A stretch of DNA of 63,865 bases, counting the filler, from Myxococcota bacterium (lineage in GTDB: Bacteria > Myxococcota_C > UBA6777): the NCBI GenBank assembly GCA_023150835.1. It is 3 parts of 3 records of this genome, joined end to end, with 100 filler letters (N's around TTAATTAATTAA, not from the genome) between each part and the next. Parts side by side here need not be neighbours in the genome. Positions count along the whole stretch, not along the records: positions 22,034 to 43,674 come from JAKLKB010000123.1; 2 more parts are not named here. One strand, 5' to 3'. The notes under the pieces were generated by a model that saw only the letters and a list, made by a program, of their open reading frames with translations, was not told where the DNA came from and searched no databases. Made by a program: the position numbers and the translations under genes. Below, one piece after another: positions 10,314-52,017 of this stretch. How positions within the stretch are numbered: position 1 is the first letter of the stretch; the number at the start of each line of letters is the position of its first letter.

Positions 10314-10374
10314 CGCCAAAATCTTTCTTTCTGTAGGTGTCGCTTCGTGTGGGTATCGCTTGTTCGGAGTATGT

Positions 10375-10497
10375 TGTGGGGCTTTGCCCCACGCCCCACA
10401 AGGGAGCGCGGCCCCCTTGACCCCGTGAGGGGCGGGAAGCACAGACGTTGTTCAAACCAACGACGGCTCCGCTTGAAAGTCCGCGAACACGGGATTT
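10375..10497 (-). repeat. Dispersed ~125-bp palindromic REP/MITE-like element (family B)
   Basis: Core GGGGTCAAGGG.GCCGCGCTCCCTTGTGGGGCGTGGGGCAAAGCCCCAC plus a GTGTTCGCG...CAAGCG...TTGAAA arm. Related copies at ~16692-16780, 18960-19085, 26755-26880, 29885-30010, 33543-33668, 39167-39290 and 51865-51992. Confidence 0.8.
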
Positions 10498-16524: not shown

Positions 16525-16779
16525 AATCGGGCAATGACAGCGAATCGCACCGACCCTTGCGATCACACATCTCTCGGATATCGTATCATAAGAAATCCGC
16601 CCGTCGTGTGATTGTCAAACGTAGGCGCAGGCTGCCCAACAATCGGGCGTCTGTGTACTCTCCCTCGATCACAGATTACTCGGATATCGTATGACCCCTT
16701 GACCCCGTATTGGCGGGGCACACAGGCGTTTTTCAAACGAACACCTGCGCCGCTTGAACATCCGCAAACACGGGGGGTC

Positions 16780-18845: not shown

Positions 18846-18979
18846 GTTGTGGGGTTCCACTCCACGCTCTGTCGTTGTGGGGTTCCATCTCACGCTCCAT
18901 AGCTGTGGGGTTCCACTCCACGCTCTGTCGTTGTGGGGTTCCACCTCACGCTCCATAGTTGTGGGGTTCCACCCCACGC
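18846..18979. repeat. 28-bp tandem repeat x5, an amplified end of the family B element
   Basis: GTTGTGGGGTTCCA(CTC/TCT/CCT/CCC)CACGC units at 18846, 18874, 18902, 18930 and 18958, with no unique spacers. Confidence 0.9.
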
Positions 18980-19238
18980 CCCGCAAGGGGTCGCAGCCCC
19001 CTTGACCCCATATTGGCGGGGTGGGCGGTTGTATTTCAAACCAACAGCCCTGCCGCTTGAAGGTTTGCGAACACGAGGGTTTTTGACGTTTCCGCTACGA
19101 CCTTTCTTTGTGGCTTGACCGCATTGGTGAACCTCGCGCATATTTGCGAGAGATCAGAACGTGCCTACAGATTCAGACCCGTGTTGTTAAGGGGGAAAAC
19201 CTCGGGTGTTGAGGCAAAAAACGCAATGGAGGACAGTC

Positions 19239-21509
19239 GTGGAGAAAAAAGGACTGATGGAAGAATTAGAGCAGTTGGGCAAGCTGCACCAAGCAGGTGT
19301 GCTTTCGGCTGCGGAGTTCGAGGCCGAGAAAACGGGGATCTTGTCGCGATTGCGTGCGTTGCGAGAAAAGAGCCATCCCGCAGGCGAGAGCAGCGGTGTT
19401 CACGGCGGAGATGCTTTTCGGACGGGTGCTGCGGAGGTTCAGCCAGCAAGAACACCTGCACCGTTGTTTTCTCCCGACCCAGCGGGATCAGGGGTTTGTG
19501 GGGTGATCGGGGAGCGGTATCGATTGGTGAGGATGCTCGGTCGGGGCGGCATGGGTGAAGTGTGGTTGGTCGAAAACTTCCGATTGGCGCGAGTTTTTGC
19601 GCTGAAGTTTCTGGCAAGTGAATTGGTGGGATCGTCGGAAGCTTTAGCGCGGATGCATCGAGAATACGAAGTGCTTGAAAAGTTGTCGCACCCAAATATC
19701 GTGCGCGTGTTCGATATGGATCAAGACAAAGAGAGCAGCCGGTGGTATCTGCGGATGGAATATGTGGAAGGCGAAGACTTGGGGAAAAAAATCGCTTTGG
19801 CTTCGAAACAAGGGCAGAAGCCGTTGTTTGCGATGCAGCAGATCGTGGGTTGGTTGGGGCAACTTGCAGAGGCGCTGGATTATGCCCATCAGCGGGGGAT
19901 CTTGCATCGCGATATCAAACCCGCGAATCTGATGCTTACAGCCGATCAGCATCTAAAAGTGATGGACTTTGGGATCGCACGCGTCGTCAGTGGAACGCAT
20001 ACGACCCAACACACCGCGATGATGGGGTCGATGTATTACACCGCCCCTGAGTTGCTGCGTGGTCAAGCAGCCACCCCGTCAACGGATATCTATTCGTTTG
20101 GCGTGTTGGTGTACGAGCTGCTAACGGGCAATTTGCCTGTGGGACGGTTTGCACTGCCATCTTCGTTGGTGGCGGGGTTGCCGAAGCGTGTCGATGATGC
20201 TGTCGAACGAATGTTGATGATGGAGCCTAAACAGCGGGGAGAATCGCTGCGCGAAGTGTGGTTGCCTTTGCGGGACGCGCTTGGTGGACAGCCCACGCAA
20301 TCCGTTGTTCTGCAAAAAACAGATCCACCACCGACGAAGACGGAGGCGACTACGCCGCCACCCGCGAAGCCGACGCTCGGGAAGAAAGGGGTGGTAGAGG
20401 AAAAGTCGGAAGAGAAAAAGAATCGGGAACTTGCGGAGGAGCGACGCGAAGCGAATGCCTCGCAAGAGCGCACGGGGCGGAAAAAGAGCGGCTGGGGGCG
20501 GTGGGTGGCTGCGTTCGTGGTGTTGGGGTTATGTGGCTGGGGCGTGGTGTGGGGTGTGGGCGTGTACCAAGAAGCGCAAAGACGGGAAGAAGCGCAAAGA
20601 CGGGAAGAAGCGCAAAGACGGGAAGAAGCGCAAAGACGGGAAGAAGCGCAAAGACGGCAACGAAATTCGCGGAGTGATGGCAAGGTCAAGCGTGTGTTTC
20701 AAATCGGGGATGCGGAGTACAAGACGCGATGGATTCCAGCAGGGGAATTTGTGATGGGGAGTCCGTCGAATGAGCCGAATCGAAGCTCAAACGAAGGGCC
20801 ACAGCGGACGGTGCGGATCAGTGAGGGATATTGGATGATGGAGAACGAAGTGACGCAGGGGCAATGGAAAGCAGTGATGGGAGCGGCGAATAACCCACCG
20901 AGTTTTTCATCGTGTGGGGACAAGTGCCCGATGGAAAGCGTGTCGTGGCATCAAGCCGCAGCGTATGCGAACAAGCTGTCGAAGAAGCAAGGCGTGGAAG
21001 AGTGCTTTACGTGTCGTGGCGAGGGAAAGGGCATACGGTGTGACGGATTGGGAAACAAGGGGAGAGATTATGTGAAGTGCAAGGGATGGAGGTTGCCAAC
21101 CGAGGCGGAGTGGGAATACGCAGCGCGAGCAGGAACAACGAAGGCGTATCACACAGGGGATTGTATCTCGGCAGCACAAGCGAACTACAACGGGAACTAC
21201 CCCGAAACGAATTGCGAGAAGGGAGAGTACCGGAAACAGACGATAGAGGTGTGCGGCTTGGTGCGGAACGCATGGGGGTTGTGCGATATGCACGGAAATG
21301 TGTGGGAGTGGGTGTATGATGGGTACAAGGACACAGCCTATCAGGAGCTAGGAGCCGTTGATCCAGTCTACGTAGCAGCGGCGTCGTACCGCGTCTTACG
21401 GGGCGGTAGTTGGTACTACTACGCGCAGTTCTTGCGGTCAGCGTATCGCTCCTGGTTCGCGCCTACGGACGCCAGCAACTTTCTCGGTTTTCGGTTGCTC
21501 AGGCATTGA
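19239..21509 (+). CDS. SHOCT - Ser/Thr kinase - TM - FGE-sulfatase (CLec) receptor; candidate DGR target
   Basis: N-terminal SHOCT-like helix (LEQLGKLHQAGVLSAAEFEAEK). Intact kinase (LGRGGMGEV, ALK, HRDIKPAN, DFG, APE). TM helix and REEAQR repeat. FGE domain (IPAGEFVMGS, EVTQ, RLPTEAEWEYAARAG, DMHGNVWEW, RVLRGGSW...GFRL). Start is GTG 19239 (after GGAGG) or ATG 19257. Confidence 0.92.
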   Translation: MEKKGLMEELEQLGKLHQAGVLSAAEFEAEKTGILSRLRALREKSHPAGESSGVHGGDAFRTGAAEVQPARTPAPLFSPDPAGSGVCGVIGERYRLVRMLGRGGMGEVWLVENFRLARVFALKFLASELVGSSEALARMHREYEVLEKLSHPNIVRVFDMDQDKESSRWYLRMEYVEGEDLGKKIALASKQGQKPLFAMQQIVGWLGQLAEALDYAHQRGILHRDIKPANLMLTADQHLKVMDFGIARVVSGTHTTQHTAMMGSMYYTAPELLRGQAATPSTDIYSFGVLVYELLTGNLPVGRFALPSSLVAGLPKRVDDAVERMLMMEPKQRGESLREVWLPLRDALGGQPTQSVVLQKTDPPPTKTEATTPPPAKPTLGKKGVVEEKSEEKKNRELAEERREANASQERTGRKKSGWGRWVAAFVVLGLCGWGVVWGVGVYQEAQRREEAQRREEAQRREEAQRREEAQRRQRNSRSDGKVKRVFQIGDAEYKTRWIPAGEFVMGSPSNEPNRSSNEGPQRTVRISEGYWMMENEVTQGQWKAVMGAANNPPSFSSCGDKCPMESVSWHQAAAYANKLSKKQGVEECFTCRGEGKGIRCDGLGNKGRDYVKCKGWRLPTEAEWEYAARAGTTKAYHTGDCISAAQANYNGNYPETNCEKGEYRKQTIEVCGLVRNAWGLCDMHGNVWEWVYDGYKDTAYQELGAVDPVYVAAASYRVLRGGSWYYYAQFLRSAYRSWFAPTDASNFLGFRLLRH
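21390..21503 (+). other. DGR variable-region-like segment (VR) of the kinase-CLec gene
   Basis: Colinear, gap-free 114-nt alignment to the TR at 39573-39686. Hand count: 20 of 32 TR adenines differ versus 18 of 82 non-adenines, the latter mostly at codon third positions. Confidence 0.6.
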
Positions 21510-21933: not shown

Positions 21934-22033
21934 NNNNNNNNNNNNNNNNNNNNNNNNNNNNNNNNNNNNNNNNNNNNTTAATTAATTAANNNNNNNNNNN
22001 NNNNNNNNNNNNNNNNNNNNNNNNNNNNNNNNN
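21934..22033. other. Artificial contig-joining linker
   Basis: N44-TTAATTAATTAA-N44, a six-frame stop spacer. Confidence 0.98.
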
Positions 22034-26419: not shown

Positions 26420-26929
26420 ATGCAAACCGCTCCCAAACATCTGCAAAAACCAAAACGACTCCAAAAGATCGACGCTATCTTTCGGCTTTCAGTCTTCCAC
26501 GATCCTTTTTTCCGCACAATCGGACCAAAAACAAGAGCCGTCACAATTATTTCGGACGTGGGACAACGCGCCATAAAACAACCCCAACAAATGATACGAC
26601 GCCTACGACGCGTGAAAAATATGTGAAGGGGCTTCGCAAACAATTCAAAGATCGAAGCCACAGAAGGCTCGTTTGGAGGGGGCGTTGGTGTCCGTGATTT
26701 TTTGATACGACGCACGCCGACAAAATTCTCTCCTAACATGAGAGTGGCGCAGTGACCCAATCCCCCGTGTTCGCGACCGTACAAGCGAGAGAGTCGTTTG
26801 ATTGAAAAACGATGCTCTGTTCGCCAACACAGGGTCAAGGGAGCCGCGCTCCCTTGTGGGGCGTGGGGCAAAGCCCCGCAACACAAACCAACCGTGTCAC
26901 TCTTGTCCTCAAAAAGAAGCGGAGGCCGT

Positions 26930-29818: not shown

Positions 29819-30046
29819 ATGCGTACCCACTTCCTACGAAACGCTTCCAACGGCTCACACCCTACAAAATCGACGCCGTTGGCCCGAAAAACCCCGTGTT
29901 CGCGCCCCTCCAAGCGGAAAAGTCGTTTGATTGAAACACCACCGCTCGTCCCGTCGATACGGGGTCAAGGGAGCGTGGCTCCCTTGCGGGGCGTGGGGTG
30001 GACCCCCACTTCACAAAACCGCTCCAACCCCTCTGATTCCACTCGG

Positions 30047-33505: not shown

Positions 33506-33766
33506 CTTTCGCTCCTTTCTTTGGATGACGCTCTCTTCCGATTTGTGGGGCGCTGCCCCACACCCCGCAAGGGACCCATGGCCCCTTGACCCCGATTTGG
33601 CGGGGTGATCGTTCACTTTTCAAACAAACGTCTGCGCCGCTTGAGGTGGCGCGAACACTTGGTTTTTTTGTCAACTACGTCACTTCTGTGTTGGTTGAGG
33701 ACTATCGCGATCTTCGCGCTCCCCATCCACCGCACTCAAACAACGAATCCCTCAAAAAAAGTCCCC

Positions 33767-35183: not shown

Positions 35184-35506
35184 CCCACCACAACGCTCCC
35201 CACCTGCCCGCTGACCACGTCGAAGCCAACGGTGCCGTACTCGACAACCACAACGCTCCCCACCTGCCCGCTGACCACGATCACAAGCCCTCTCGTCCAA
35301 CTCACACACGACGCCTGTCCAAAAAACAAACGCCCGCAAGCCACAACCCCTTCGCTTTCGTTCTCTCACCGCATCCTTACTTTTTATATCCGACCAGAAT
35401 CGAAAGAGAATTCTCTCTATGCTCCTTTGGGAACAAGGATTGACAAGCAGCCTCTCGTCAGCGTCAAGCCTTCCGACGCACAACAACATCCAAAGGAGAC
35501 AAAACG

Positions 35507-37021
35507 ATGAGCGATCAAACAATTACCCGCAAACAATTCACCCAAGCCACCGTTTCTGCCAACAACCCTGACCTTCAAAAAATCTTGAAAAACAATTACA
35601 ACCAAGCCTTTGATACCAACGGAGACGGGAAACTGGACGCATCCGATTTCGGCGTCAACAAGGATGGAACCATCAGCAAAGAGGGAATGGAACGACTCTT
35701 CGCCTTCGCCACTTTTTACCAGAGCAACGAAAACGCCAAGGCCGTCAAAAACCAAGGCGTTGTTGGCGAACTCTACTCTGCCATACGCCAAGAAAACGCT
35801 TCTCCCAGCCCAAAAACCAGTGCTGCCTATCGAAGCAATACTGCTGACAAACCTCTCACAGCCGAGGAAAAACAAATCGCACAAACTGCTTTCCTCCGTA
35901 TCAAAAGCCAAATCCCCTCGAATCTGCACGCTCAAATGCAAGAAAAACTACAAAAACTCGCAAGAAACGGCCAACTCAACTGGCTCAAAGATTCAAGTCT
36001 TACACCAAAAGCACAGTCCTTCGCGCTTCTTGAACAACTCACATCCTCCAAACAAGCCAACGAGATCGCTGCTTTCGCTAAAAATCCCCGTATCCAACAG
36101 GCTTTCATTGAAAATGGTCTGAGTGTTTCACCCAAAATATTACAAGAAAAAGAACTTGTACAAACCCTCTTTCTTCGCCTCGCGTCAAAGTCAGGAAACG
36201 AATTCGCCACACGCATCTTTGAACACTTTGATTCTTCTAACCTTTCCCGCACACAACAAACACAAATCCTCAGTGTACTCCTCGCACACCCAAATCACGC
36301 AAAGACGCTCGCAGCCCTCCCGAAAGAAAAAATCGCAGAAGCCCTCCAAACGATGGCGAAGGATATCTCACAATTTCAACAGCTTGCTTCCAGCGCGGAT
36401 TCTGGCATCAACAGCGCAACACAAATCGATCGAACAACACAAGCGGCAAAAGCCCTCAAAGAAAAACCTTGGCTGCTTTACAGCCTTCCTGCCAACGAAG
36501 CACAAAAACTGATCACCACTTTCGTCCACGCGCTCGGCCAAACCGAGGCAGCAAAAACAAGCCCCCGCGACGAAAAGTTTCAGCAAGAAATCATCAAAGA
36601 CGCCCTTCTCGGACTCAAAAAAGACAGCCCCAAAATGTACAGTGTTTTATTTGGCGCAGCCTATCAATCCGTCACGAACAATCCCCTACCCAACTGGAAA
36701 GAACATCTGCTTTCCCTTGCCGCCAACCTTGGAGCTTCTACTCTTCCTCTGGGTGCGTTCAAACCCTTTTTCGGAAGTGCGGTCTCTTTCGAAGTTTCGA
36801 GAGCAACAGGAATGAGCAACGGAACCGCTGCTGCTGACGCAATAACAGGACTCGCAAATGACCTTTTGATGGGAGTCCTTGGACTCGGTTCCGCAGGAGC
36901 CCTCGCCATCATCCTCAAAACAACCCTCACCGTATCCGCCGATCTCATCCGAAACGAATTGGCACAAACAGGCATCGGTCGGTTCCTTTCCAAAGCAGAA
37001 AATGCGAATATCCTGCCGTAA
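35507..37021 (+). CDS. Hypothetical helical protein with an EF-hand-like loop and a hydrophobic C-terminus
   Basis: AAGGAG RBS, DTNGDGKLDASDF loop, no signal peptide. Visibly more A/T-rich than its neighbours. Confidence 0.75.
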   Translation: MSDQTITRKQFTQATVSANNPDLQKILKNNYNQAFDTNGDGKLDASDFGVNKDGTISKEGMERLFAFATFYQSNENAKAVKNQGVVGELYSAIRQENASPSPKTSAAYRSNTADKPLTAEEKQIAQTAFLRIKSQIPSNLHAQMQEKLQKLARNGQLNWLKDSSLTPKAQSFALLEQLTSSKQANEIAAFAKNPRIQQAFIENGLSVSPKILQEKELVQTLFLRLASKSGNEFATRIFEHFDSSNLSRTQQTQILSVLLAHPNHAKTLAALPKEKIAEALQTMAKDISQFQQLASSADSGINSATQIDRTTQAAKALKEKPWLLYSLPANEAQKLITTFVHALGQTEAAKTSPRDEKFQQEIIKDALLGLKKDSPKMYSVLFGAAYQSVTNNPLPNWKEHLLSLAANLGASTLPLGAFKPFFGSAVSFEVSRATGMSNGTAAADAITGLANDLLMGVLGLGSAGALAIILKTTLTVSADLIRNELAQTGIGRFLSKAENANILP

Positions 37022-37156
37022 CAAGACAAAAAATCAGTAATTACCGCCGATATCACTCGCACAAACCGCCCCTACAACAGCGATTCGACAACCGAAACCA
37101 CACCCATCGACAAATCACTTTTCGGCCCAATGTTCGACGATGCTGCCTCAGCCCTT

Positions 37157-38011
37157 TTACCCCCCCAGCAAAAACTCCAACAGTAGCGCATTCACCCGCT
37201 CAGGCGCATCACACTGCACCCAATGGCTTGCGTCCGAGATCCGATCCACCCGAAGCACCCGCACCCAATGCTCCAACCCTTCCAACAAAGACAGCCCCAG
37301 ATACTTGTCCTGTTCTCCCCAGATCACCTGTGTGGGGGCCTCGACGATCTGTCTTTTTGGCCAATAGCTCGAAAGATCCCTTGCTGCGGCCCGATAATAG
37401 TTCAGCCCCGCCGTCAAAGCCCCTTCTTGACCCAACGCCTCACAATACAACCGACGATCTTCCTCTGTAAAAGCCTCTTTATGCACAGGATCACGCTGCA
37501 ACAGCTTGTCCAACAACGCGAACCCATCTCGACGAATCACTCGCTCCGCAAACGGCGACTGAAACTGCAAGATATACAGCGATTTTTGAAACTGTTCCCA
37601 CGTCCGCAACTTCTTCGCAAACACCACAGGATGCGGCGCATTCAAGATCGCCAACTTCTCCACAACACGCGGATGCCGCAACGCCACTTGCCACGCCACC
37701 ACCCCTCCCCAATCATGCCCCACCACCACCGCGCTCTCTTCCCCTGCGTCCTTGATCAGCCCCAACACATCCCCCACCAACGCTTCCATCCGATACGACG
37801 CCAATCCCTTCGGCTTTTCCGACAGATTGTACCCCCGCATATCGGGCGCAATCACCCGATAACCCGCCTCCGCCAACGCTCCGATCTGATGCCTCCACGA
37901 ATACCAAAACTCTGGAAACCCATGCAACAACACCACCAACGGCCCTTCGCCGTACTCCACAAGGTGCAGCCGCACGCCATTCACTCGCGTTTCCCGATGT
38001 ATCCAACCCAT
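37157..38011 (-). CDS. Alpha/beta hydrolase, epoxide hydrolase family
   Basis: LLHGFPEFWYSWRHQ, APDMRGYNLS, VGHDWGG, NYYRA, IWGEQD, ASHWVQ. Confidence 0.93.
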   Translation of the reverse strand: MGWIHRETRVNGVRLHLVEYGEGPLVVLLHGFPEFWYSWRHQIGALAEAGYRVIAPDMRGYNLSEKPKGLASYRMEALVGDVLGLIKDAGEESAVVVGHDWGGVVAWQVALRHPRVVEKLAILNAPHPVVFAKKLRTWEQFQKSLYILQFQSPFAERVIRRDGFALLDKLLQRDPVHKEAFTEEDRRLYCEALGQEGALTAGLNYYRAAARDLSSYWPKRQIVEAPTQVIWGEQDKYLGLSLLEGLEHWVRVLRVDRISDASHWVQCDAPERVNALLLEFLLGG

Positions 38012-38278
38012 CAACCACCTCCAGATCCATTCAACGCCATCAGGGGGGGGAACCTCACAAACCCAACCCCCACAAACCCCACAGCACAAACCCTATCCTC
38101 ACTCAATTGACCGATTCTCTCGTCAGCAGCGTGAACTCGACACGTCGGTTGCGAGCGCGCCCTTGTGCGTCTTGATTGCTTCTTACCGCTCCCTCTGCCT
38201 TTCCCCCTCGCCTCTGCGAAAAGCAGGGAGAGGGGGATGCCCGCTAGGGCAGGGGGTGAGGGTAAAAAGCAACAAGCG

Positions 38279-39124
38279 TCAATACCTCACCAACCGAAAG
38301 CCGAAACCAGAACTGCGGCCCGACGTTCCATAGGGATCGCGATACGCCGCACGCGCATACCACAAATTAAAGTATCAACTACCACCCCGCACCACACAGC
38401 GGTCCGCTGGCTTGCTTTGGAGTGGATCCTGCGTCGCCATCCCTTCATACGAACCGTACATGTCCATCGTCCACTCCCACACATTCCCCAACATATCCTT
38501 CAGTCCCCATGCGTTCGCCTTCTTCCCACCTACGGGGTGCGTCTTTTTGTCGCTGTTGCCACCATACCAAGCCACCTCATCAACATCCCCGTACCACGCT
38601 CCTGTTGTTCCCGCTCGTGCTGCGTATTCCCACTCTGCCTCTGTCGGCAACCTCCATCCTTTGCATTGGAAGATCCTTCGATCCGTCACGGCACAAGGCA
38701 CCCGCTTTTGCGCTTCCGACAACTTGTTCGCAAACGCTCGCGCATCATGCCAGTTCACCTTCTCCACAGGGCAGTTGTCGCCGCATTTCTGAAAATGCGA
38801 TGGATTCGACCCCATCAACGCCCTGTACTGTCCTTGTGTCACTTCCGTCTCCAACATCCAAAATCCCTTGCTGATCTGAACCCTTCGCTGCGGCCCCTCA
38901 TCGTATTGCCGCCCCGCCTCCCCTATCGGACTCCCCATCACAAATGATCCCGCTGGAATCCATCGCATCGCAAACGCCGATCCTCCCGCCACAAACGTCT
39001 TTCGTGTTCCTGCTCTTCGCGCTCCTCCTTTTCCCTGCGAATAGCCCTCTCCACCACCCCACAATGCCAAACCAAACACCAACACCAAACCACACACTCC
39101 CACCATCCACCGCTGTCTTTGCAT
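38279..39124 (-). pseudogene. Secreted FGE-sulfatase/CLec protein with an in-frame nonsense codon in the VR-equivalent region
   Basis: All FGE motifs are present. RGGS is followed by TGA (38375-38377) where Trp (TGG) is conserved. The same frame continues YFNLWYARAAYRDPYGTSGRSSGFGFRLVRY to a stop at 38279-38281. Confidence 0.8.
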
Positions 39125-39399
39125 CTTTACCACTCCTTTTTTCAATCTGGCATTTTTTCTCTAGATTTGTGGGGTGCCACCCCATACCTCGCCATAGACT
39201 GTCGCCCATTGACCCCGATATCGGCGAACAGAGCATCGTTTTTCACACCAACGGCTCTTTCGCTTGAGACGCCTCGAACACGGGGGATTGTCGGCCAGCG
39301 GCCTTCATCCCATCCGAAACACAGGCTTTTCGACCGACGGTCTCTGTTCCGTCCCAAACACAGGTTTCTTGGCCAAATGCGCCGCTCATCTCCTTTTTT

Positions 39400-39572
39400 T
39401 GAAAAACACCGACGCTACGGGTGAAACAGGCCCCTTGTGGAGGACGCCCCGAAACGCAGCATCGGTGCTGTTTGGTTCTTTGGTGCTTTCGCACACAGGG
39501 AGCGAAGCGGTGGTTCTCTTATACCTGTTGGCGCGGTCTCCGTAAAGGCCGCACATCGAAGATGTTAGAGAA
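39400..39572 (-). ncRNA. Putative DGR spacer RNA downstream of the TR
   Basis: Non-coding region directly 3' of the TR. A 13-bp stem (39455-39467 with 39407-39419) pairs fully only on the minus strand, using two G-U wobbles, and is followed by a U-run. A second stem GCGGCC...GACCGC lies nearer the TR. Confidence 0.55.
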
Positions 39573-39686
39573 GCTGAGCAAGCGGAAACCAAGGTTGTTG
39601 TTGCGATTCGTCGGCGCATTGTTGTTGCGATTCGCTGAGCGCACGTTCCTCGCGTTGTTGTTCCAACTACCACCTCGATTCACCCG
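39573..39686 (-). repeat. DGR template repeat (TR)
   Basis: Minus strand CGGGTGAATCGAGGTGGTAGTTGGAACAACAACGCGAGGAACGTGCGCTCAGCGAATCGCAACAACAATGCGCCGACGAATCGCAACAACAACCTTGGTTTCCGCTTGCTCAGC. This reads RVNRGGSWNNNARNVRSANRNNNAPTNRNNNLGFRLLS, an AAC/AAT-rich copy of an FGE C-terminus directly after the RT stop. Confidence 0.95.
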
Positions 39687-39698
39687 CTTCGTACTGTT

Positions 39699-40695
39699 TC
39701 ATGCTTCGACCCCTCCGCCTATCCCTTCAAAGAAGCGACGGCGAAACGGCAATGTATGCCTGCCCAAACTATGCCCAAGTCGCGCTGCACTACAAGCTGC
39801 CAGCCTGACTTCCGATACCTTTCCCGCCCGATGCTCCGACCACAATCGCCGAAACCCTCTACAGAAACGATGCTTCCGCGCCGCTGTCCAACGCAACCCG
39901 CTCCGAAAAACCCGCACACCCAAAAAGCGCACACCTTCCGTCACCGGACAAAGCCTTGTCACCGACCTTTTCAAATCCAAACACAATTCGCCCACAACGA
40001 TCTCTTGCAGCGCAAACAAAGCATCCCATAACGCTGCTTTCTCCGCACCAAAGCACAAGATGTCGTCCATGCACCGACTCTTTCGCCGCGTGATCCAGCC
40101 GACCCAAATAAAAGTTCGCAAAATGTTGGCTCGTGAGGTTCCCTATCGGCAACCCCTTACCTTCACGCGATCCCTCCAACGGCACCCCAAGGATCTTCGC
40201 AAATAGCCGATGCAACGCCCTCTCCCCAAATTTTCGCTCCAACGCAGCTTGAAGCACCCCGTGATCGATGCTCTCAAAAAATCGCTCGATATCCAGTTTC
40301 AGCACATACGGATAACGCCGTGCATAGGTCTGCGCTGCTTCCAAAGCCCGTAAGCTGCCTTTGCCTTTTCGACAAGCGTAACTGTCCCTTGTTGCATAAG
40401 CCTCCAAATGCGGCTCCAGTACACCGCATAGCGCGTGATGCACCACCCTGTCCCGAAATCCTGCCGCCGAGATCCGACGTGCCTTTGGATCGCACACCCA
40501 AAAATGCCGCAATCGTCCCGGTTCATAACCGCCCGAACGTAGCTCTTCTTGCAACCGCAATATCTCCGCTTCACGATCCCACAAAAAAGCCTGTACATCT
40601 TTCCTTTGGCGTTTTCCCTTCGCAGCTCGTTCTGTCGCCTTCCACAACGTCTCAAACGCACAAACCTGCTCAAATAGCCCATCTACCCGCTTCAT
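39699..40695 (-). pseudogene. DGR-class reverse transcriptase, frameshifted at the catalytic motif
   Basis: MKRVDGLFEQ..., DPKARRISAAGFRDRVVHHAL, SYACRKGKG, LKLDIERFFESIDH, GLPIGNLTSQHFANFYL. At ~40077 the frame shifts from DHAAKE to RCMDDILCF, followed by GVRFLGVRVF. The start overlaps the avd stop (ATGA). Confidence 0.88.
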
Positions 40696-41087
40696 TGGCT
40701 CGCACCTATCGACTTCAACCAACCACCCAACATCCGCCCCGCTTCCACTAGCCTTTGACTCGTCTGCTCCAAACCACCGTGGCTGAGGTAGCCTCGTGTG
40801 TGGCACAACCGCACCAACAAACGCAATCGCTCCAGCTTCCGATTCACACCTTCCAGTATCGTGCGCTTTTCCTTCCGATAACGCGCTTCGATCAATTCCT
40901 CGAATATCTCCAACGCCAGATCCTCCACCCGCCTTGTCAGCGTCATCCGTGCCGCCTTTGGGAACTTTTCGGTTCGCTCCAACAACTCCCCTACAAATCC
41001 CTCCCACAACGTCAACAACGGTAACGACGCGACGTTCCCCTGACCTTCTTTCCCTTCCTCACTTTTCTCCGTCTTTTCCCGTATCAC
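40692..41087 (-). CDS. avd: DGR accessory variability determinant (Avd / four-helix bundle)
   Basis: KFPKAARMTLTRRVE...LRLLVRL...L.EAGRMLGGWLK, typical of bAvd-like proteins. Translationally coupled to the RT. Confidence 0.9.
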   Translation of the reverse strand: MIREKTEKSEEGKEGQGNVASLPLLTLWEGFVGELLERTEKFPKAARMTLTRRVEDLALEIFEELIEARYRKEKRTILEGVNRKLERLRLLVRLCHTRGYLSHGGLEQTSQRLVEAGRMLGGWLKSIGASQ

Positions 41088-41989
41088 TTCTCCCTTACTC
41101 TTTTTTCCTGCCCTTTCCGTGCTTTACGAAGCGTGAGACTCCCGTTGGTCGTCTTCCGTGTCTTCTGTGGACGGCCTTCCTTCGCCTTTCGGGAGCTCTT
41201 CCGCTTCTCTCGCTTGCCGCTCCGCTTGCCGCTCCGCTTGCTGCGCTTCCTTCGCTTCAGACTCCCCCCAGACTTTTTGCAATCCGCCATCACGATGGCT
41301 GTTTCAGCTAATGGACTCTCCATCACATACACTTTTACACCGCCCACGTTCGCCGACACCACCAACACGCCCCATCCTTCGATGCTTGAGGTTGCCCCGC
41401 TCGTTCCGCTTGTTCCCGTCGAAGCCACGCGCTGCCCACAACCCGGCATCCGCACCAACAACATCCCTTTTCCCGCGATATCCGGCCTCAACGACGGCGT
41501 TTGTGTCTTCCCCAACTTGCGCGCTTCATCACTTACTTTGTCGCTCACGTAGTCCTGTATCTCTTGCGCTGTAATGCACTTGTCTCCGTTCTTATCCGCC
41601 TCTCCACGCAATCCCTTCAAGAAGTAGTGCGTATATAGCCCATTCCCCAAATTTCTCGGTTCCAACGACACTTCGTTTCCATCCGACGGCGTGAACACCA
41701 CACGATTTTCACCCCGAAACATCGTTCCGTGCGTGCTCGGTAGAAAATTACTCTTTTCTCTTCCCAAACTTGCGATATACTCCGAGGCCACCGCTCGGCT
41801 AAAGCATGTAGCCAGCACCAACATCTGTTGCCGCACACGCATCCGCTTCAACGCATTCTCCAAAAATCCTCCCGACAGCCCCGAATGCTTCAACCTCGCC
41901 GCATCCGAATCGTGCATCACTAAGAAGCTTCCTTCCTCTCCTAACTTCTCTCCTTGCGTACTCACGAATACAAACACCATCCTCCCCAT
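41084..41989 (-). pseudogene. Truncated or degenerate caspase-like (peptidase C14) protein with the start of a PEGA domain
   Basis: VFVFVSTQG (cf. FSGHG), LVLATCFS (cf. LDACHS), NGLYTHYFLKGLRGEADKNGD..IT..E...YV...V....QTP. This is followed by GVLVVSANVGGVKVYV and a basic, apparently out-of-frame tail. The N-terminal part of the caspase fold is missing. Confidence 0.62.
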
Positions 41990-42225
41990 ACTACGAAAAA
42001 ACCTCTCGGTGCAACCCCCCTCTTTCTTTCCATTCCGCCTCTTCTCTGTCCCAAAACGCATAGCGTTCTTCAAATAAGGCCGACTTCGCGTCCTCCCAAG
42101 CGACCGAGGCGTTCGTTTGGAAAATCTCTGTTCGCTTCGCCAATACCCGCGACCTATGGCGGAGTCTGAAGCGGAACCCCAAACACAACCCGCTCCCTCG
42201 CCTCGATAGTCCTCTAAAAAAATCC

Positions 42226-42311
42226 TTGACAGATCTCGAAAGCGGTTTACACTACAAACCAAGTTTGTATCACAAACCAGTTTACATCACAAACAGGTTC
42301 ACATCACAGAC
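42226..42311 (+). promoter_or_regulatory. Sigma70-type promoter overlapped by four tandem palindromic operator sites
   Basis: TTGACA (42226-42231), 16 nt, TACACT (42248-42253). 15-bp sites: GTTTACACTACAAAC (42245), GTTTGTATCACAAAC (42263), GTTTACATCACAAAC (42280), GTTCACATCACAGAC (42297). Confidence 0.7.
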
Positions 42312-43674: not shown

Positions 43675-43774
43675 NNNNNNNNNNNNNNNNNNNNNNNNNN
43701 NNNNNNNNNNNNNNNNNNTTAATTAATTAANNNNNNNNNNNNNNNNNNNNNNNNNNNNNNNNNNNNNNNNNNNN
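43675..43774. other. Artificial contig-joining linker
   Basis: N44-TTAATTAATTAA-N44. Confidence 0.98.
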
Positions 43775-51836: not shown

Positions 51837-52017
51837 CCCAAATCCTCCGCACTTCAATCGGGGTGGATCAAAAACCCCGCATTCGCGACGCTTCAAGCGG
51901 CAGCGCTATCGGTTTGAAAAACCGTTATTCGCTCCGACGATACGGGGTCAAGGGAGCCGCGCTCCCTTGTGGGGCGTGGGGCAAAGCCCCACTGCATCGA
52001 CCCAAATCCTCCTCGCT

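Follow-up and report, generated by a model that had tools for sequence, protein, structure and literature searches.

A chromosomal diversity-generating retroelement of an activated-sludge Myxococcota bacterium with a probable remote caspase-FGE target and a reverse transcriptase interrupted by a 23-nt deletion

A stretch of 63,865 nt from the assembly GCA_023150835.1 of an uncultured Myxococcota bacterium of activated sludge (three parts of three records joined with filler, here termed the window) carries a chromosomal diversity-generating retroelement (DGR) on record JAKLKB010000123.1. The cassette is a genuine DGR, in which an avd accessory gene, a reverse transcriptase (RT) gene, a template repeat (TR) and a spacer follow one another on the minus strand. 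In the sequenced strain the RT frame is broken by a 23-nt deletion directly before the catalytic MDD residues, the FGE genes of the window provide no variable region (VR) that differs from the TR essentially at adenines, and the gene upstream of avd is a truncated remnant. A VR of this A-only kind was found in the nearest genome compared, at the 3' end of a gene for a caspase-PEGA-FGE protein. Taken together, the locus is best explained as a DGR that is directed at a remote target, has lost its cis target by decay and has had its RT knocked out in this strain, an explanation to which we assign, as a whole, a probability of about 0.72.

Results

Genomes and sequence sets

The window was compared with related genomes and with contigs of metagenomic runs. 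The nearest genome, G001, is 86% complete, has 26% of the window 31-mers in common, and is 89-95% identical to the window over syntenic stretches. G002 is a further relative (64% complete) and G003 is a genome of the same family. The stretch is contained in 20 of the 24 listed runs, which come from 8 studies, and contigs of four of the 24 were examined, namely X1, the probable source sample, and X4, X5 and X6, which belong to three other studies. These data are Logan contigs and not raw reads; for the contigs that carry TR-like or VR sequence they allow the geometry and the number of differences to be read, not the identity of the differing bases. The closest intact RT homologue in the protein collection, a 339-aa protein encoded by a 2053-nt Logan contig and designated P0002, was used as a query for the RT in the window and in related genomes. 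Coordinates of the features discussed are given in Table 1.

Table 1. Location of the DGR cassette, its relatives and neighbouring elements in the window, with the evidence for each.
Feature	Position	Strand	Evidence or remark
avd accessory gene	40692..41087	-	Pfam bAvd 3.4e-15; NCBIfam DivGenRetAVD
DGR reverse transcriptase, pseudogene in this strain	39699..40695	-	Pfam RVT_1; tblastn with P0002
Template repeat (TR), 122 nt, 36 adenines	39575..39696	-	Homology to FGE C-terminus
Spacer stem-loop, 10 bp and UACG tetraloop	39531..39554	-	RNAalifold; candidate Avd-binding stem-loop of DGR RNA
Caspase-like gene remnant, probable former cis target	41084..42262	-	Homology to G001:C12 and G001:C291
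95-nt element	41173..41266	-	92% identity to G001:C12 sequence 91 nt downstream of the VR
Short FGE/CLec protein gene	38375..39145	-	Pfam FGE-sulfatase 6.6e-42; not the cognate target
VR-like tail of the 38375 gene, in frame past TGA, YFNLWYARAAYRDPYGTSGRSSGFGFRLVRY	38287..38374	-	In-frame translation
VR-like 3' end of Ser/Thr kinase-FGE gene (19206..21509)	21399..21502	+	Closest in-window TR relative; not cognate
MITE-like intergenic repeat, ~120 bp, between cassette and next gene	39166..39289	.	Not part of the DGR
Short dispersed repeat, ~48 nt, between 95-nt element and avd	41113..41160	.	Not part of the DGR

The avd and RT genes are of the DGR type

The identity of the cassette was examined from its two genes. 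The avd product scored 86.9 bits against the NCBIfam equivalog DivGenRetAVD and thus passed the cut-off of 80, and the avd stop codon and the RT start codon (at 40695) overlap in an ATGA, so that avd adjoins the RT gene in the manner of DGRs. Motif 4 of DGR-clade RTs reads [I/L/V]GxxxSQ, and the motif IGNLTSQ is present in the RT of the window. Among the solved structures of the PDB, the best match of the RT was 8ub7 (E 1.9e-45), an entry named only 'Reverse transcriptase' that we take to be the bRT of the Bordetella phage; the group II RT GsI-IIC (3.1e-13) and 'retron-type' RTs (5.9e-11) matched far more weakly. The motif and the ranking place the protein in the DGR clade. The sequence-only reading of this DNA had named avd and a DGR-type RT as DGR machinery and had held that grouping with group II intron or retron RTs would speak against this; the scores of DivGenRetAVD and 8ub7 bear the assignment out, and no such affinity was seen in the PDB ranking, where those RTs stand at 3e-13 or weaker versus 1.9e-45.

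Matches to the RT were found in 158 phage records, five of them from Bordetella phages. No NCBIfam RT model reached its cut-off with the RT of the window, and among species-representative genomes eight loci with RT relatives were found, none of them close (best identity 51%). When related genomes were searched with P0002, an RT match was obtained in 11 of 40. The order avd-RT-TR is also found in G003 (contig C901), where it is preceded by a gene labelled HRDC-like by eye from its translation.

The template repeat and its spacer

The TR, STKRVNRGGSWNNNARNVRSANRNNNAPTNRNNNLGFRLL, begins 3 nt past the RT stop codon. It is a non-coding, adenine-rich copy of a target 3' end: read in frame it holds 9 AAC and 4 AAT codons (13 AAC/AAT within 122 nt and 36 adenines), and its translation matches the C-terminus of Pfam FGE-sulfatase (1.7e-4). 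The AAC-rich TR that had been recognised after the RT from the sequence is thus confirmed.

A stem-loop was found 21 nt downstream of the TR, in the place of the cis RNA element of a DGR. When the three TR loci at hand (the window, G003:C901 and G001:C506), a small sample, were folded together with RNAalifold, 6 of its 10 pairs were kept by double-sided changes. Simple folding of the spacer gave a z-score of 0.36, and an Rfam scan of the whole window returned 0 matches at the gathering score. The stem-loop fits the Avd-binding stem-loop downstream of TRs that is described, in the part of the text available to us, by the bRT-Avd cryo-electron microscopy preprint (10.1101/2023.10.23.563531).

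The last of these loci, on contig C506 of G001 (431-552), is another TR-like sequence rich in AAC, and a UACG stem-loop of its own follows at about 567-590. A copy of the 120-bp repeat of Table 1 lies before it, and no RT was found beside it or elsewhere in the G001 assembly. This locus is possibly an orphan TR or a relic.

The cognate VR is absent from the window and is matched in the nearest genome

BLASTN with the TR at a word size of 7 detected only two VR-like stretches in the window, at 21399-21502 on the plus strand and at 38389-38314 on the minus strand, and neither is cognate. Over the 114-nt span 39573-39686, hand counts in the sequence-only reading had given 18 and about 28 non-A mismatches for the two closest FGE genes; our recount gave exactly 18 (21399-21502) and 28 (the 38375 gene), and its statement that no A-only VR exists among the FGE genes of the window stands. 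In local alignment to the TR the two candidates have 14/73 and 14/52 non-A mismatches.

An A-only counterpart was found in G001, on contig C12. Over the 122 nt of the TR, this VR mismatches at 20 of the 36 adenines and at 2 of the 86 other positions (hypergeometric P = 2.9e-11); agreement at 84/86 non-A positions is reached by nothing in the window. Over the 114-nt span used above it has 3 non-A mismatches. Both non-A mismatches of the full alignment fall within its last 25 nt, and the homology of TR and VR ends at GCTCAG. In the coding sequence that surrounds the VR, identity to the window paralogues is only 70-76%, and the positions that vary in an alignment of relatives coincide with the Asn codons of the TR. 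The VR lies at the C-terminal end of a protein of at least 674 aa that comprises Peptidase_C14, PEGA and FGE-sulfatase domains, the last spanning residues 434-672 of 673 (Pfam, 1.2e-43). The gene has no avd or RT adjoining it and is followed by an unrelated gene. The earlier proposal that the cognate VR lies elsewhere in the genome, and that targeting is in trans, is thus supported by a paralogue in the nearest genome. Orthology between the C12 gene and the gene upstream of avd was also considered and was rejected: the syntenic contig is C291, to the end of which C12 is 73% identical. The locus orthologous to the DGR itself falls in a gap of the G001 assembly, with contigs C439 and C291 ending at the counterparts of window positions 37676 and 41844, respectively.

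Contigs of the runs carry arrangements of the same elements. A 494-nt contig of X1, with a depth of 15.1 (window contigs, 12-16), holds the 95-nt element of Table 1, 231 letters and an FGE body, with the same spacing as in C12. In a second X1 contig, TR-like sequence is separated from an FGE body by 12 letters, of which 11 match C12. A 407-nt contig of X5 holds a TR-like stretch (21 differences over 121 nt), 96 letters and the 95-nt element.

It might instead be supposed that the true target is one of two FGE genes of the window (38375..39145 or 19206..21509), with a VR that has merely drifted. Both genes end in VR-like tails homologous to the TR, one of them is placed just downstream of the TR, and adenines have more than their share of the mismatches (Fisher P = 1e-4 and 5e-3). 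Such enrichment is, however, expected for any FGE paralogue, since the A-rich codons of the TR sit at the naturally variable positions of the family. Moreover, the 18 and 28 non-A mismatches per 114 nt compare with 3 for the VR of G001, and the tail of the 38375 gene varies between strains mainly by synonymous T/C changes and not at TR adenines. We therefore regard a drifted in-window target as highly improbable, and a remote target as the better explanation.

The two genes have features of their own. The gene at 19206-21509 encodes 767 aa, in which a SHOCT-like N-terminus is combined with a Ser/Thr kinase domain and, at the C-terminus, an FGE domain (Pfam Pkinase and FGE-sulfatase), an architecture typical of DGR targets; no TR that matches it was seen in the window. 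The 38375 gene is ended by a TGA at 38377..38375, in place of the TGG (Trp) codon of an RGGSW motif. In X4, X5 and X6, position 38375 is changed from T to C, which gives TGG, and the TGA is thus strain-specific; reading of the TGA as Trp in an alternative code was rejected, as other strains have TGG there. The 3' end of this FGE gene (38264-38408, about 145 nt) carries 8 substitutions and one indel relative to the window that are common to X4, X5 and X6. The changes are mostly synonymous T/C, and over the next 3 kb X4 is otherwise the same as the window. The patch looks like a small recombination event, one that would also have brought or removed the TGA.

The RT is interrupted by a recent 23-nt deletion

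The RT reading frame is interrupted between 40072 and 40070. By tblastn, P0002 was identical to the window at 208/208 residues in one frame (40695..40072, residues 1-208) and at 123/125 in the next (40070..39702, residues 217-339). The residues between, RLGGYVRY (209-216), directly precede MDD and are missing, with one base in their stead. The lesion is thus a frameshifting 23-nt deletion (8 codons minus 1 nt), and no intact RT frame with a YxDD box exists in the window. An intact frame is present in P0002 and in contigs of three of the four runs: X4, X5 and X6 each provided one contig with a 23-nt insert behind 40070 that restores exactly RLGGYVRY. A 1930-nt contig of X1 (39224-41153) was identical to the window and lacked the insert. 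The deletion is real in the source population, as it is seen in the X1 contig and the insert in those of X4-X6. It is also recent, since the X4 contig is, apart from the 23 nt, identical to the window over 39807-41489. That this copy of the cassette is working machinery, as the sequence-only reading implied, is not supported. Because the RT is knocked out by the deletion, diversification would be off in this strain and any remote VR frozen.

These data also bear on the main view of the sequence-only reading, in which the cassette is still active, acting in trans and possibly on several targets; a second DGR RT elsewhere, or an intact allele in a minority, would then make up for the RT defect. 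The near identity of the X4 strain over 39807-41489 makes the deletion very recent. Two contigs of the source sample (records 5 and 6) align to the TR at single-copy depth with 20 and 19 differences, and the sister genome holds a second TR-like locus with a spacer stem-loop (G001:C506). Against continued activity, the only RT seen is frameshifted and lacks 8 residues that include the Tyr of YMDD, and the 1930-nt contig, from an independent Logan assembly of the source sample, has the same deletion with no differences. The TR of the window has no A-only partner in the window, and the C506 TR-like sequence fits the VR of C12 poorly (15/72 non-A mismatches). We judge it unlikely that the cassette is still active in this strain, and favour a cassette that is off in this strain and intact in others.

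The gene upstream of avd is a remnant of a caspase-like gene

The open reading frame (ORF) upstream of avd lacks the N-terminal half of a caspase-like protein and its catalytic His, with STQG in place of STHG/SGHG. It is about 70% identical to G001:C12 at the nucleotide level over 41324-41978, and a loss of about 1.05 kb relative to C12 has taken the FGE domain and VR together with most of the PEGA-like linker. The ORF then continues in non-homologous sequence up to a stop at the avd start. No Pfam family matched the remnant at E<=0.01, and its score against NCBIfam caspase_w_EACC1 (50 bits) was below the cut-off of 140. The orthologous gene, which stands at the end of G001:C291, extends about 388 nt further on the 5' side and keeps STHG.

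Within the remnant, the 95-nt element is the counterpart of a sequence that is single-copy in G001, on C12 only, downstream of the VR. Folding of the element revealed no structure beyond that of shuffled sequences. Judged from its placement in C12, the element appears to mark the former position of the VR-bearing 3' end, and the remnant was probably once a DGR target. The suggestion that a VR may have been lost when the upstream gene was truncated is supported by the missing 1.05 kb and the retained element. The cis VR was lost before the RT deletion arose, since X4 and X5 contigs in which the RT is intact span 41266-41324 without insertion.

With four independent lesions in 4 kb (the 23-nt deletion in the RT, the missing caspase N-terminus and His, the missing FGE domain and VR, and the TGA that cuts the 38375 gene), the locus could also be a fully dead relic, in which the cassette and all of its targets decay, no cognate VR is left, and the A-only match in G001 belongs to an element of that other species. 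Such a state is at odds with the absence of the 23-nt deletion and of the TGA from three of the four runs, with an avd, TR and spacer that are intact and identical in X4, and with the contigs of C12-like geometry that are present in the source sample at the depth of the genome. A dead relic is therefore improbable, about as much as an active cassette, and the recently silenced, remotely directed DGR is the reading retained here.

Observations that weigh against the retained reading

Several observations weigh against the retained reading. No GC-rich block or hairpin like those of an initiation of mutagenic homing (IMH) site was recognised at the 3' end of the C12 VR, and folding of the sequence downstream of this VR gave no structure beyond that of shuffled sequences. 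P0002 detected no RT in G001 or in G002, at their completeness of 86% and 64%, which leaves the template behind the C12 VR unseen. Searches for orthologues of the C12 protein elsewhere retrieved none. Metagenome contigs gave 80 loci with a best identity of 49%; the protein collection gave a best identity of 78% with a 243-aa C-terminal query, and 18 matches with a best identity of 61% with a 101-aa C-terminal query. None of the relatives found was close enough for VR diversity to be compared across samples. FGE relatives in the protein collection bear the name 'Myxococcota bacterium', in agreement with the assignment of the genome to this phylum. The VR was scored base by base in G001 only, and that the same remote target is served in the present genome is presumed from it. 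The covariation of the spacer stem-loop comes from three sequences only. Finally, the source sample may also hold an intact RT allele at low frequency, since contigs lose rare variants.

Repeats and other local features

Two dispersed repeats lie beside the cassette. The repeat of about 120 bp resembles a miniature inverted-repeat transposable element (MITE); the window has 8 copies in both orientations relative to neighbouring genes, the others being at 10374-10493, 16695-16776, 18951-19082, 26758-26841, 29875-30009, 33540-33658 and 51875-51954. It has more than 30 matches in G001 and none to plasmids, and its contig depth was 657 relative to 11-17 for the flanks in X1, and 242-329 relative to 7-12 in X4-X6. 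The 48-nt repeat has 7 further matches in G001, and in each of the four runs its contig depth exceeded that of the flanks about 8-fold. Between 41127 and 41164, 10 letters are replaced in several contigs.

Further from the cassette, about 2 kb of the window (35190-37162) is absent from the syntenic G001 contig C439, which has 181 nt instead; this segment includes an ORF of 504 aa (35507..37021) with a weak EF-hand match. Masked runs, four of 44 N each, are found at 21934-22033 and 43675-43774.

Discussion

The working form of the element is the one found intact in contigs of other sludge samples. In this form a complex of Avd and RT would bind RNA of the TR and its downstream spacer, the RNA would be reverse-transcribed with errors at template adenines, and the resulting complementary DNA would replace the homologous VR at the 3' end of a gene with an FGE/C-type-lectin fold. 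The cognate target would be none of the three FGE genes of the window but the caspase-PEGA-FGE protein, encoded at another locus and thus targeted in trans, and the gene directly upstream of avd would be the decayed remnant of a paralogous cis target. We infer that the cassette acts on the remote target in strains in which the RT is intact. A stronger claim, that otherwise identical strains of one sludge species form a natural on/off polymorphism, in which a 23-nt indel switches hypermutation and the element serves a remote caspase-lectin 'sensor' after decay of its cis target, is put forward tentatively, as a possibility that we think less likely to hold than to fail.

The prototype DGR, that of the Bordetella phage BPP-1 (mtd-avd-TR-brt), likewise has Avd, an RT of the same clade and an A-rich TR. 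Further likenesses are a spacer RNA with a stem-loop downstream of the TR, as given in the portion of the preprint 10.1101/2023.10.23.563531 at our disposal, and a target of C-type-lectin fold. Unlike the phage-borne BPP-1 element, which acts on a tail-fibre protein, the present DGR is chromosomal, has the order avd-RT-TR-spacer, no adjacent VR and a broken RT, and is probably directed at a CLec domain of the FGE subtype that is joined to a caspase.

Closer parallels are provided by the DGRs of multicellular bacteria, such as Thiohalocapsa PB-PSB1, that diversify putative antigen sensors (PNAS 2024, PMC10907252). In those sections of that paper that we could draw on, C-terminal FGE/CLec VRs are fused to caspase-like or other conflict-system domains, loci may be incomplete, and remote targets have VRs that match a distant TR at all non-A sites. 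Natural structural variants with and without an intact RT and MITE-like repeats within the loci are also described there. The present case differs, as far as these sections go, in lineage and in the N-terminal module, which is Peptidase_C14-PEGA here and STAND or CHAT-TIR there. Cyanobacterial DGRs that tune regulatory proteins likewise have signalling or protease domains at the N-termini of their targets, according to the part of the report available (BMC Genomics 2020, PMC7517822). The features found here, taken singly, are already described for DGRs of multicellular bacteria within the sections of PMC10907252 cited. The element belongs to a known system, as an ordinary member in decay, and brings no new mechanism.

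The element is a Myxococcota case of a recently described class, the DGRs by which multicellular bacteria diversify lectin 'sensors' linked to caspases or kinases. It combines targeting at a remote locus with the decay of its cis target and with an RT knock-out that is very recent and specific to the strain. It also urges caution in annotation: the presence of avd, RT motifs and a perfect TR does not guarantee a live cassette, and a sister genome may be the only place where the target can be recognised. If the on/off polymorphism is true, populations that still diversify a putative death-effector sensor would coexist in treatment plants with populations that do not, and the two could be compared directly.

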